Source: Nanobdellota archaeon
Lineage (GTDB): Archaea > Nanobdellota > Nanobdellia > Nanobdellales > Nanobdellaceae
NCBI GenBank assembly: GCA_042850255.1
Contig: AP031373.1
Coordinates: 390,001 to 422,000 of the forward strand
DNA: 32,000 nt
Reading direction: 5' to 3'
In this document: positions 23,036 to 30,221 of the stretch, one piece after another
Position numbering within the stretch: the stretch's first letter is position 1
Layout: each line of letters starts with the position of its first letter
Translations under genes and position numbers: made by a program
The notes under the pieces: model-generated
Told to the model about the DNA's origin: nothing
Database searches by the model: none
The model's input: only the letters and a program-made list of their open reading frames with translations

Positions 23036-23521
23036 ATGCCCTCTCGGAGTCTCCTTCCTAAAAAAGTATTTTTTACTTCAGGGATTGGGGTTGCAGAAGA
23101 TCCATTATTAAGTTTTGAATTTGCATTGAGAGATGCAAAAATAGAAAAATTTAATTTAGTTCCAGTTTCTAGCATAGCGCCTCCAAATATAAAAATAATA
23201 GATATAAATGAAGGATTAAAAAAATTAAAACCTGGTCAAATAGTATTTTGTGTTCTAGCTAGGTTTACTTCTAATGAGGAAGGAAAGGAGATATATTCTT
23301 CAGTAGGTGTAGCATTACCAAGGGATAAAAAATATAATGGATATTTTACAGAATATCACGGATACTATACTGGAAAGGAAGATGGATACGCAAAAAATAA
23401 AGCAGAATATATGTTAAAGACAGCATTTAATATTGAAGTAGAGAATAGTTTTGAGGTATTTAGAAAAACAAGGGTAGAAAAATATACAACAGTTGTATCT
23501 TCTGCAGTATTTATATTATAG
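23036..23521 (+). CDS. pdaD: Pyruvoyl-dependent arginine decarboxylase
   Basis: 161 aa. LPKKVFFTSGIGVAEDPLLSFEFALRDAKIEKFNLVPVSSIAPPN matches the PdaD N-terminal region, including the V-S-S self-cleavage site. Confidence 0.75.
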   Translation: MPSRSLLPKKVFFTSGIGVAEDPLLSFEFALRDAKIEKFNLVPVSSIAPPNIKIIDINEGLKKLKPGQIVFCVLARFTSNEEGKEIYSSVGVALPRDKKYNGYFTEYHGYYTGKEDGYAKNKAEYMLKTAFNIEVENSFEVFRKTRVEKYTTVVSSAVFIL

Positions 23522-24346
23522 ATTTTCAAATACCTTTTTATATATCTCTTTTAATTGATTTGGAATAACATGTGTATATATTTGTGTAATAGATAGTGAA
23601 CTATGTCCTAATAATTCTTGTATATATCTGATATCTATACCTTTTGATAATAATGTAGTTGCTAAAGAATGTCTCAATACATGGGGAGTAACTTTTTTAT
23701 TTATTCCAGCTTTTTTTGCAGTTTCCTTTATTATTCTTTCTACTTGTCTAGTAGATAATGGGAACAAATATTCTGTGTTTATATTATTAATATAATCTCT
23801 TATTTCATCTAATAATTCTTTTGGTAACGGTACTATTCTTTCTTTTCCACCTTTTCCGAATACTTTTACTAATCCTTCTTCAAATATTATATCAGATTTT
23901 TTTATCTTTACCAATTCAGATACTCTAACTCCAGTATAAAACAAAAATTTAATTATTAACTTATCTCTTTTATTACTTGCAGAATCTAGTAGTTTTTGGA
24001 ATTCTTCTATTGTTATAAATTTTGGCAATCTTTTATCTACTTTTGGCGCTTTTATTTGCTTTGCAAGATTTTCATTATCTAAAAATTTTAGAAACGATGA
24101 TATAGATCTTACATATAATCTCAAAGAATTAGAATCTAATCTTCTTTTTATTTTTGATTCCGCTAGAAATTTAAATATTATATTTTTATCTAAGGAACTT
24201 AAAGATTTTTGATCAAGATCCCAATAACCGTTATTTAATAAAAATTCTAAGAATTTTTTAATTATTAATGAATAAGTTTTTATCGTATTTTTTGATTTTC
24301 CTTGTATTTCTAACCATACTTTATATTCTTCGATAATATTATCCAT
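23516..24346 (-). CDS. xerA: Tyrosine recombinase XerA-like
   Basis: 276 aa. It has an N-terminal SAM-like core-binding domain, then TGVRVSEL, HVLRHSLATTLL and LLGHSSLSITQIYTHV, which supply the R-H-R-Y catalytic set. Confidence 0.85.
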   Translation of the reverse strand: MDNIIEEYKVWLEIQGKSKNTIKTYSLIIKKFLEFLLNNGYWDLDQKSLSSLDKNIIFKFLAESKIKRRLDSNSLRLYVRSISSFLKFLDNENLAKQIKAPKVDKRLPKFITIEEFQKLLDSASNKRDKLIIKFLFYTGVRVSELVKIKKSDIIFEEGLVKVFGKGGKERIVPLPKELLDEIRDYINNINTEYLFPLSTRQVERIIKETAKKAGINKKVTPHVLRHSLATTLLSKGIDIRYIQELLGHSSLSITQIYTHVIPNQLKEIYKKVFENL

Positions 24347-24367
24347 ATCTTAAGGGAATACTTTGTC

Positions 24368-24381
24368 ATATAAAAATTTTT
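24368..24381. promoter_or_regulatory. Palindromic TATA region likely serving xerA (minus) and the hairpin/sRNA transcript (plus)
   Basis: ATATAAAAATTTTT contains the palindrome AAAAATTTTT. Measuring about 26-27 nt from the TATA centre reaches 24399, the first nt of the GC-rich element, on the plus strand. On the minus strand it reaches about 24350, with the xerA ATG at 24346. Confidence 0.35.
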
Positions 24382-24398
24382 GAAGAATAATATATTAT

Positions 24399-24450
24399 CC
24401 CTGCCTGCCATGCACTAGGGATAAAATGAACTAGTACCTCCTGGCAGGGG
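24399..24450 (+). ncRNA. GC-rich structured element of unknown class, upstream of or fused to the C/D sRNA
   Basis: CCCTGCC (24399-24405) pairs with GGCAGGG (24443-24449). An inner helix forms between ACTAG and CTAGT around a 12-nt loop. An alternative hairpin pairs TATCCCT (24396-24402) with AGGGATA (24417-24423). It is a local GC island in an AT-rich genome. Confidence 0.3.
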
Positions 24451-24455
24451 AGAAA

Positions 24456-24504
24456 ATGATGTAGTTGGCTTGAATCTGAAAAATGATGACAACGGCTACG
24501 CTGA
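24456..24504 (+). ncRNA. C/D box sRNA (2'-O-methylation guide)
   Basis: Order of elements: C box ATGATGT (24456-24462); 13-nt guide AGTTGGCTTGAAT; D' box CTGA (24476-24479); C' box ATGATGA (24483-24489); 11-nt guide CAACGGCTACG; D box CTGA (24501-24504). This is the compact archaeal C/D architecture. Confidence 0.65.
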
Positions 24505-25231
24505 TTAATATTTAATTTGGCATTTTTCGCAATAGAAGTTTATTCTATTTCTTTTTCCACTTTTATTTATTTTTATTTTATTCCCGCAATAATAACAATA
24601 TCTTTTTCTATAACATAGTAAAATATCTTTTAATCTTTTATTTTCTTTTCTTATATTATAAAATTCTATCGAAAAATTTCTAACATTATTTAATAATTCT
24701 ATTAATTTTTCTTCAGGAATATTTTTTGAAATACTCTCTGGGATGTATTTTTGATCTAAATAAACTTTCAACTTTTATTATATTTCCCACACCTGGTAAT
24801 ATTTTCTGATCTAATAAATCATCGCATATATAATTTTCACTATTTTTTAAATATTCCAATACTGGTTTATAATCCCAATCTTTATCCAATATATCTCTAT
24901 AATCCTTTTCTATTTTATCTACTAAATTTATTGAACAATTATAGAAAAATAATTCATCATTTTCAAATTTTAATGCCAATCTAATATATTTATCATCTTT
25001 TTTCTTTATATTTATTGAATAGGATCCATACATTAGAAAATGTATTCTTAATATTTTACTATTATCTAGGTAAATTAATAATAATTTCCCATAAGAATCT
25101 ATATTTATTATTTTTCTATTTTTTATATCTTTTAAATTTATTTTCTTAGTATTTCCATAAGCATCTAATATTTCTTTTCCTATAAATATGTATAATTTAT
25201 CTAATATACTCCTCACTGATGGTCCTTCCAT
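24505..25231 (-). pseudogene. Fpg/Nei-family DNA glycosylase interrupted by a 1-nt frameshift
   Basis: ORF 24713..25231 carries a Nei-like N-terminus (MEGPSVRS) and the H2TH motif (LLDQKILPGVGNIIKVESLFRSKIHP). ORF 24505..24771, in another frame, carries ...SISKNIPEEKLIELL and the Fpg zinc finger CYYCG...RINFYCEKCQ. Deleting one G from GGG 24740-24742 gives the continuous reading KIHPESISKNIPEEK. Confidence 0.7.
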
Positions 25232-29570: not shown

Positions 29571-30149
29571 ATGGTAAAATGGATTGAAATTGAATACCAA
29601 ATATATGATGAAAATGGTGCTTTAGTAGAAAAAACAAACGAACCTGTAATTTTACCTTTAGGGTATGGAATATTGAACAAAGAAATTGAAGAAAAATTAG
29701 CATCTTCTGAATTTGGAAAAGAATATAATTTCTTATTAAAAAGACCTTTTGGAGAAAGAAATCCAGATTTAGTGAAAATTATACCTATATCTGAATTTTA
29801 TAAGAGAAATATAAATCCTGTACCAGATTTAGTTGTAAATGTAGATGGAGCAATTGGAATTATAAGATCTGTAAATAGTGGAAGAGTTATTGTTGATTTT
29901 AATCACCCATATGCTGGTAAAGATTTACTATATGTAATAAAATTAAATAGAGAAGTTACAGATTTAAAGGAAAAAATTATTGGAATATTAAGTATTACTT
30001 ACAATATATCTAAAAATAATTTTGAAGTAAATATAGATGATAATAATAAAAAAATTGTTATTAATGTTAAAGATCTAAATTTAAGTAAGGAACAAAAAGA
30101 AATAATAAAAAAGTTTATACCTGAGATAAAAGATTATAATATAGAGTAG
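29571..30149 (+). CDS. FKBP-type peptidyl-prolyl cis-trans isomerase (SlyD-like)
   Basis: 192 aa. IEYQIYDENGALVE, VIVDFNHPYAGKDLLYVIKL is the FKBP/SlyD signature (vDfNHPLAGk.L.f). An IF-like insert lies between the two halves. Confidence 0.8.
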   Translation: MVKWIEIEYQIYDENGALVEKTNEPVILPLGYGILNKEIEEKLASSEFGKEYNFLLKRPFGERNPDLVKIIPISEFYKRNINPVPDLVVNVDGAIGIIRSVNSGRVIVDFNHPYAGKDLLYVIKLNREVTDLKEKIIGILSITYNISKNNFEVNIDDNNKKIVINVKDLNLSKEQKEIIKKFIPEIKDYNIE

Positions 30150-30221
30150 GGCCCGTAGCTTAGTTGGTAAAGCGTCGGGCTCTTAACCCGAAGATCGGGG
30201 GTTCGAATCCCCCCGGGCCCG
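30149..30221 (+). tRNA. tRNA-Lys (anticodon CUU), no encoded CCA
   Basis: Hand-folded cloverleaf. Acceptor GGGCCCG/CGGGCCC. D arm GCTT-AGTTGGTA-AAGC. Anticodon arm TCGGG-CTCTTAA-CCCGA. Variable loop AGATC. T arm GGGGG-TTCGAAT-CCCCC. Discriminator G. The first nt is the last nt of the upstream TAG stop. Confidence 0.9.

Follow-up and report, generated by a model that had tools for sequence, protein, structure and literature searches.

In eukaryotes, composite scaRNAs such as U85 carry methylation and pseudouridylation guide domains on one RNA. These scaRNAs belong to Cajal bodies, have a double-hairpin H/ACA domain nested inside the C/D domain, and have snRNAs as their targets. In Pyrococcus, the H/ACA guide Pab21/Pf1 constitutes the 5' end of a transcript that is annotated as the C/D RNA snoR9, RF00065 (PMC2377435, PMC4652768), and Northern blots show Pab21 in vivo both alone and joined to the C/D part. 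Archaeal H/ACA guides are described as having a lower stem of 7-9 bp, an ANA box 14-16 nt from the closing pair and a GA stem of 8-11 layers, the productive Pyrococcus guides having a GA stem of 10 layers (PMC4652768). Another H/ACA sRNA of this genus, Pab19 of P. abyssi, guides formation of 16S Psi1017 and is active in vitro.

Within the Nanoarchaeota, the guide RNAs of N. equitans include one stand-alone double-hairpin H/ACA RNA as well as tRNA-C/D dicistrons (Randau 2012). Randau 2012 does not provide a published H/ACA-C/D hybrid for this organism, since the H/ACA RNA described there stands alone. Among the C/D sRNAs of N. equitans, sRNA13 begins GAUGAUGU-AGGUGGCUUGACU-CUGA and sRNA18 carries AUACGGCUACC (Randau 2012 supplement). 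Mass spectrometry and RiboMeth-seq located two 2'-O-methylations in N. equitans 16S rRNA, Am1408 and Gm1508 (Seistrup et al. 2017, PMC5389701), which that study assigned to sR13 (D') and sR18, respectively, these being its names for sRNA13 and sRNA18. A putative sRNA of Nanopusillus acidilobi was proposed in the same study, with its D' guide directed to A1408 and its D guide to G1508 (PMC5389701, Suppl. Fig. S4). The main text of PMC5389701 makes no mention of an H/ACA hairpin.

The window analysed here is a stretch of 32,000 nucleotides that corresponds to positions 390001-422000 of the single contig of a 773-kb genome (23% GC), which was placed in the Nanopusillaceae (Nanoarchaeota). Positions 24398-24504 (+) of the window form a GC island, with 46% GC vs ~22% in the flanks, in agreement with the GC-rich 5' element of the original prediction, which had joined a hairpin of unknown class to a C/D sRNA. 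Both the hairpin and the C/D sRNA proved to be real, and 17-18 related genomes of the Nanopusillaceae have kept them. The segment as a whole is likely to be one composite guide RNA of ~107 nt that comprises an H/ACA module and a C/D module. The architecture of an H/ACA guide joined to a C/D sRNA is already known because Pyrococcus Pab21/snoR9 has the same layout, in which a single-hairpin H/ACA guide with a K-loop lies 5' and a C/D sRNA lies 3', both with targets in 16S rRNA; as for Pab21/snoR9, a single RNA molecule is predicted here. The two loci differ in target, as Pab21 is directed to 16S position 891 and the present hairpin is predicted to act on helix 34. In addition, Pab21/snoR9 comes from the Thermococcales, whereas the present locus is from the Nanoarchaeota and has an 8-layer GA stem and an AGA box. 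The resemblance to snoR9 is one of architecture only, and the RF00065 covariance model gave no match at E <= 10 in 24250-24650. If the reading is correct, the rare archaeal H/ACA-C/D fusion would be extended from the Thermococcales to the Nanoarchaeota, and a conserved "unknown hairpin" would be re-annotated as a predicted pseudouridylation guide.

The 5' hairpin and its predicted target in helix 34

The minimum free energy fold of the 5' hairpin contains a 7-bp helix (24399-24405 with 24443-24449) and an inner helix (24414-24418 with 24431-24435), although the fold of the single sequence is just weakly better than those of shuffled sequences (z = -1.7 to -2.3). An alignment was made of 17 hairpin sequences, 14 of them distinct, from five genera. 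The stems are paired in 98% of the alignment cells, compensatory changes are found in 5 of the 14 pairs, and the covariation score was reached by 0 of 500 shuffles. Both helices of the original prediction are thus borne out by the fold and by the compensatory changes that it had proposed to look for in homologous loci. The same prediction had also drawn a mutually exclusive hairpin between 24396-24402 and 24417-24423, which did not hold up; the pairing can be drawn, but it shows no compensatory change and is broken by substitutions in the relatives.

The alignment extends the lower stem to 9 bp, in which the 5' strand UCCCUGCCU (24398-24406, +) pairs with the 3' strand UGGCAGGGG (24442-24450, +). 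Pairing in this stem is kept in 96.8% of the cells, and four of its nine pairs have compensatory changes among the 14 distinct sequences, as in the series CCCUGCC/GGCAGGG, CCCUACC/GGUAGGG and CCCCACAUG/CAUGUGGGG. The 5-bp upper stem is formed by ACUAG (24414-24418, +) and CUAGU (24431-24435, +) and is 100% paired, with one pair changing from G-C to A-U. Its strands enclose a K-loop, G-GA-UAAAAU-GA-A (24419-24430, +), which is a presumed binding site for L7Ae and in which GGA and AUGAA are invariant. Across the alignment this apical loop has the format G-GA-N5-6-GA-A, the GA dinucleotides being invariant and the spacer variable in both sequence and length. Between the two stems lie the strands of a putative pseudouridylation pocket, GCCAUGC on the 5' side (24407-24413, +) and ACCUCC on the 3' side (24436-24441, +). 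These strands, GCCAUGC and (A/U)CCUCC, are nearly invariant in the 17 genomes, with an invariant CCUC, and are unpaired within the RNA, while the stems vary. Directly after the lower stem comes the ANA box AGA (24451-24453, +), which begins after 15 nt following the closing pair of the upper stem in all 17 genomes. In the genus of the source genome the box reads AGA; four other genera have ACA, and the genome of Nanobdella aerobiophila MJ1 has AUA.

Of 21 genomes of the order, 17-18 contain the hairpin, in one copy each, as determined with BLAST and with a covariance model built for it. At the level of the class, the covariance model matched in 16 of 151 sampled genomes, including the source genome, all of which belong to two families. 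Neither BLAST nor the covariance model found the hairpin outside those two families among the class genomes sampled, which include N. equitans.

The original prediction had stated that the 5' module possesses no H/ACA features. This statement does not stand, as the lower and upper stems, the K-loop, the ANA box and both pocket strands are all present, and the dimensions of the hairpin (a lower stem of 9 bp, an ANA box after 15 nt and a GA stem of 8 layers) agree with the published geometry of archaeal H/ACA guides. The 5' module is most likely an archaeal H/ACA guide for pseudouridylation, judging from these motifs and their conservation. Rfam H/ACA families gave no match to 24250-24650 even at E <= 10. 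A split tRNA half or a tRNA-like element was also considered for the module and rejected; it contains neither a D-loop nor a T-loop, which the original prediction had said correctly, and the sole match to the tRNA model in the window is at 30149-30221.

The pocket can form 6+6 bp with GAGGAGG-UG-CAUGGC in helix 34 of the organism's own 16S rRNA, leaving U1013 and G1014 unpaired. On the 5' side, GCCAUG is antisense to CAUGGC at 16S positions 1015-1020, and on the 3' side CCUCC together with U24442 is complementary to (A)GGAGG at 1007-1012. An rRNA site as good as this one was obtained with 4 of 5000 shuffled pockets, and 4 of 1500 did as well when rRNAs and tRNAs were searched together. The target site in helix 34 is conserved in every 16S sequence recovered from the relatives. 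We take U1013 to be the equivalent of U1052 of E. coli 16S rRNA (helix 34). The 5' hairpin is therefore a candidate guide for pseudouridylation of the A-site uridine in helix 34 of the Nanopusillaceae, beside the two methylations that were mapped experimentally in N. equitans.

The same uridine in an identical context, GAGAGGAGG-U-GCAUGGCC / GAGAGGAGG-U-GCAUGG, is the target of Pyrococcus Pab19, and the 3' guide of Pab19, CCCUCCU, has the core CCUCC(U) in common with the present hairpin. The two guides differ in their build. Pab19 is a stand-alone RNA whose 5' guide of 15 nt includes an extra stem-loop; it also has an AUA box and leaves a spacer of 3 nt unpaired. In the present hairpin the pocket is compact, with strands of 7 and 6 nt, and a C/D sRNA is joined to the hairpin. 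With regard to the enzymes, the genome encodes Cbf5 (DKCLD domain, 65 bits) and Nop10 (76 bits), as well as fibrillarin (286.6 bits). Gar1 gave no match in a six-frame Pfam search of the genome, a search that matched in only three of four archaeal control genomes.

Alternatively, the hairpin could be an accessory structure that belongs to the C/D sRNA and does not guide pseudouridylation, serving instead as a protective or processing hairpin at the 5' end, as an extra platform for L7Ae or as a stand-in for the missing terminal stem of the C/D module; the complementarity to helix 34 would then be fortuitous, or the hairpin would act on helix 34 only as a non-catalytic folding chaperone. Several observations are compatible with such a role or speak against a guide. 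The C/D module is nearly devoid of a terminal stem, Gar1 was not detected, and the ANA box is AGA (or AUA) rather than ACA in the genus of the source genome. The 8-layer GA stem lies at the low end of the published range and is shorter than the 10 layers of the productive Pyrococcus guides, while C24413 and A24436, which flank the upper stem on either side, are unpaired or form a non-canonical pair. Mismatches in the pocket are moreover tolerated in the copy of the hairpin in N. aerobiophila MJ1. An accessory hairpin would nevertheless not be expected to have its most conserved part in the pocket strands, nor a 6+6 bp match to 16S rRNA that leaves exactly U-N unpaired, which ~0.1-0.3% of shuffles equal. 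The fixed spacing of 15 nt before the ANA box and the targeting of the identical site by a proven Pyrococcus guide likewise argue for a guide, and the orthologous C/D sRNA13 of N. equitans works without any such hairpin, there being no H/ACA hairpin upstream of it. A purely accessory function is accordingly regarded as unlikely, and a pseudouridylation guide remains the preferred reading of the hairpin.

The copy in N. aerobiophila MJ1 (genome G005, L016:1501-1616) has mismatches in both pocket strands vs an unchanged 16S target, in addition to the AUA box and a U.U basal pair. Pseudouridylation by this RNA may be decaying in N. aerobiophila, which is a cultured species.

The C/D module and its predicted targets in helices 44 and 45

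The complete C-D'-C'-D sRNA that had been predicted at 24456-24504 (+) was recovered with its boxes exactly where they had been placed. Box C is AUGAUGU (24456-24462), with an unusual final U as in N. equitans sRNA13, and is followed by the 13-nt D' guide AGUUGGCUUGAAU (24463-24475) and an invariant box D', CUGA (24476-24479). Three nucleotides further on, box C' AUGAUGA (24483-24489), in which UGAUGA is invariant, precedes the 11-nt D guide CAACGGCUACG (24490-24500) and box D, CUGA (24501-24504), giving the layout AUGAUGU-13 nt-CUGA-3 nt-AUGAUGA-11 nt-CUGA. Boxes C and D were recognised both in the sequence and by Rfam. A scan with the Rfam models, which had been suggested along with the original prediction, matched C/D models end to end at 24452-24507, though below the gathering score: snoPyro_CD scored 33.2 bits vs a gathering score of 45 (E 2.8e-5) and sR28 scored 26.2 bits. 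A terminal stem for the module was considered and rejected, as conservation of the two flanking pairs is inconsistent.

Both guides and their target sequences had been read correctly in the original prediction, and the search that it had proposed for complementary sites located one in 16S rRNA for the D' guide (10 bp) and one for the D guide (8 bp, weak). The D' guide forms 10 contiguous Watson-Crick bp with positions 1373-1382 of the organism's own 16S rRNA, which places guide position 5 opposite A1375; 16 of 3000 shuffled guides did as well. Pairing of the D guide with GUAGCCGU(A) of 16S rRNA amounts to 8 bp in the source genome and 9 bp in relatives, and its position 5 is opposite G1461 in helix 45. 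Taken alone, the 8-bp match is not significant in the source genome, and an alternative site at 16S G546 is equally long. In E. coli numbering, UCAAG corresponds to 1406-1410 and AGC to 1507-1509 (Seistrup et al. 2017, PMC5389701), so that A1375 and G1461 are equivalent to A1408 in the decoding site of helix 44 and G1508 in helix 45, respectively.

Since the pairings of D' with A1408 and of D with G1508 coincide, the putative N. acidilobi sRNA and the present C/D module almost certainly belong to the same gene family. The present module has its box C (AUGAUGU) and its A1408-directed D' guide in common with N. equitans sRNA13, and the ACGGCUAC guide to G1508 matches the core of the D' guide of N. 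equitans sRNA18. The two guides reside on two separate stand-alone sRNAs in N. equitans, whereas both are on one sRNA at the present locus, and the D guide of N. equitans sRNA13 targets A1534 of the anti-Shine-Dalgarno sequence instead. Because its targets and sRNAs match the published nanoarchaeal ones, the C/D half of the locus is real, ordinary and essentially already published.

The best internal evidence for the C/D half is the co-variation of guide and target in the relative G013, where the target in helix 44 reads AUCAUGCCACC and the guide reads GGUGGCAUGAU, both having been altered together. In this genome 16S helix 44 has CAUCAUGCCACC in place of CGUCAAGCCAACC and the D' guide has GGUGGCAUGAUC in place of GUUGGCUUGAAN, changes that restore pairing to the same adenosine.

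Predicted transcription as one unit and the proposed mode of action

The original prediction had regarded the two modules as parts of a single transcription unit, and the spacing between them supports this. Box C begins 2 nt after the AGA box in the source genome; the 17 aligned genomes have 2-3 nt at this point, and the spacing in G013 and G019 is ~5 nt. A gap of 2 nt leaves no room for a second promoter, which argues that the modules are co-transcribed. A candidate TATA box, TATAAAAA, can be read at 24369-24376 (+), which places it ~25 nt before A24397. It is part of an AT-palindromic block, and ~20-30 nt separate this block from the ATG of the divergent gene xerA; it is plausible that this palindrome could serve both xerA and the guide RNA. 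Within the genus, ACTTTGTNATATAAAAATTTT of the block is conserved. The transcription start is counted as inferred, because the spacing between the TATA block and the hairpin is 8 nt longer in relatives of the genus than in the source genome. Downstream of the C/D module, a run of five T residues (24524-24528, +) is a possible archaeal terminator.

It is conceivable that the two modules are independent adjoining genes, each with its own promoter and ends, as the C/D orthologue in N. equitans stands alone with its own promoter and a form of Pyrococcus Pab21 exists without the C/D part. This arrangement is very improbable here, given that the space between the ANA box and box C is too short for a TATA box even in G013 and G019, that the modules are kept side by side in five genera, and that the same juxtaposition is found at a second locus. 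The composite RNA thus remains the preferred interpretation.

The locus is flanked on its left by xerA (23516-24346, -), which encodes a tyrosine recombinase (Pfam Phage_integrase, 146 bits) and is the divergent neighbour in every family member examined. The right-hand neighbour is an Fpg/Nei-like gene in convergent orientation, and its stop codon (24505-24507) abuts box D. The RNA element is not covered by any open reading frame. Despite the modest z-score of the single-sequence fold, the view that the element is a chance GC-rich sequence or a coding or regulatory part of a neighbouring gene, such as an xerA leader or an Fpg/Nei 3' UTR, has next to no probability and is effectively refuted by the alignment, by compensatory changes across 17 genomes, by the lack of an overlapping frame and by the persistence of the RNA in relatives that have not kept the downstream gene.

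The Fpg/Nei-type DNA glycosylase gene itself (24505-25231, -) is split into two overlapping frames, one of 172 aa with Fapy_DNA_glyco and H2TH domains and the other of 88 aa with a zinc-finger-like CxxC...CxxC tail. The split is due to a frameshift, to a pseudogene state or to a sequencing error, and the gene is missing from the equivalent position in the relatives.

In the scheme proposed for the composite RNA, transcription, the RNA ends, RNP assembly and the modifications are all predicted from sequence. Module 1 (24398-24453) would act as a single-hairpin archaeal H/ACA guide whose pocket holds GGAGG-UG-CAUGGC of 16S helix 34, and Cbf5-Nop10-L7Ae assembled on it would convert U1013 to pseudouridine. 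Module 2 (24456-24504) would be a C/D guide that places fibrillarin on A1375 and G1461 for 2'-O-methylation. The RNA may act as a fusion, may be cut into two RNAs, or may do both, as is the case for Pyrococcus Pab21; whether both RNPs fit together on one molecule with 2-3 nt between the ANA box and box C is uncertain. The combined output around the decoding centre would be Psi1052, Am1408 and Gm1508 in E. coli numbering.

A more tentative and rather doubtful idea is that the fusion itself is functional and not simply a tight packing of genes. The RNA would in that case form a tri-specific RNP that gathers three sites of nascent 16S rRNA, namely helix 34, helix 45 and the top of helix 44, with ordered release of these sites. 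If this were true, ordered release could set the timing with which the decoding centre folds in a lineage devoid of both the RsmA/Dim1 checkpoint and an anti-Shine-Dalgarno tail. In a broader version of this idea, the Nanopusillaceae may obtain the 3' ends of their H/ACA guides by way of an attached RNA that is processed. A search for an RsmA/Dim1 homologue in the genome found none, the sole match over the cut-off being a tRNA methyltransferase of the GCD14/Trm61 type and a second, weaker match falling below the cut-off. It has been proposed that sRNA binding around helices 44 and 45 replaces the RsmA/Dim1 checkpoint in nanoarchaea, and the predicted helix 34 guide would add a third arm to this idea. 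The predictions are directly testable, as N. aerobiophila MJ1 and N. acidilobi grow in co-culture.

The 3' end of the organism's own 16S rRNA is GGAUCUAGUU, without CCUCC. Throughout the family the 16S 3' end reads ...CUGCGGCUGGAUCUAGUU (244040-244081 of the source genome; also L025-L030, L032 and L067-L069), or GGAUCGCCCCCC in G013, and there is no CCUCC anti-Shine-Dalgarno sequence, while G020, a genome from another family of the same order that is probably N. equitans, keeps GGAUCACCUCC. Since the 16S rRNAs of the family end without CCUCC, translation initiation is suggested to be leaderless or otherwise independent of a Shine-Dalgarno interaction. At the orthologous locus of G013 (L054:1078-1230) the C/D module carries three guides, to helix 44, AGGAGGUGAGUG and to helix 45, which are separated by an extra CAGA/UGAUGA unit, and G019 keeps only the first two of these guides. 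The middle guide of G013 would fit either an anti-Shine-Dalgarno tail or 16S positions 1393-1400. These differences in G013 and G019 look like a turnover of guides linked to loss of the anti-Shine-Dalgarno sequence.

Similar hairpins elsewhere in the genome and in relatives

A whole-genome scan was carried out with a strict descriptor, which called for perfect stems, a K-loop and a correctly spaced ANA box, and which stand-alone H/ACA RNAs may have escaped. The scan returned four GC-rich hairpins from the genome, compared with none from the reversed-sequence control. All four adjoin another RNA, which is a C/D sRNA in two cases, a tRNA in one and the pre-16S leader in one, and the K-loop format of the 5' hairpin described above is shared by the three other H/ACA-like hairpins.

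The second H/ACA-C/D fusion is outside the window, at 223713-223817 of the contig. It consists of a hairpin, an ACA box and 2 nt, followed by AUGAGGA-guide-CUGA-AAA-AUGAUGA-guide-CUGA, and its pocket fits 23S U1983 with 5+5 bp, a match that 22 of 1500 shuffles equalled. At 288329-288473, an H/ACA-like hairpin has an ACA box that runs straight into tRNA-Ser(GGA) (288388-288473, ARAGORN), and cleavage by RNase P before the tRNA would create the 3' end of the H/ACA RNA. The hairpin at 242444-242520 has an ACA box and then a C-box-like AUGUAGA...CUGA, and is located ~90 nt upstream of the 5' end of 16S rRNA in the presumed pre-rRNA leader; its pocket is AT-rich. Searches for rRNA or tRNA targets of at least 9 bp found none for the hairpins at 288329 and 242444. 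Hairpins of the latter type are also located upstream of 16S rRNA in G017 and G013 (L055 ~1500-1570; L067 ~380-470).

Other arrangements of these elements were seen in relatives and elsewhere on the contig. In G019 (L056, G019:C17:100-300, -) an H/ACA hairpin with an ACA box is nested between the D' and C' regions of a C/D sRNA, a topology that makes it a different composite and is reminiscent of eukaryotic scaRNAs. At the end of the 1.6-kb contig G019:C35 (L015:1-60), the H/ACA hairpin is preceded directly by the C/D module in inverted orientation, a copy that is probably an assembly artefact. Finally, at 669896-670049 (-) the source genome contains three similar K-loop hairpins in tandem, GGCYCY-GA..GA-RGRGCC, each of which is followed by AUUUA.
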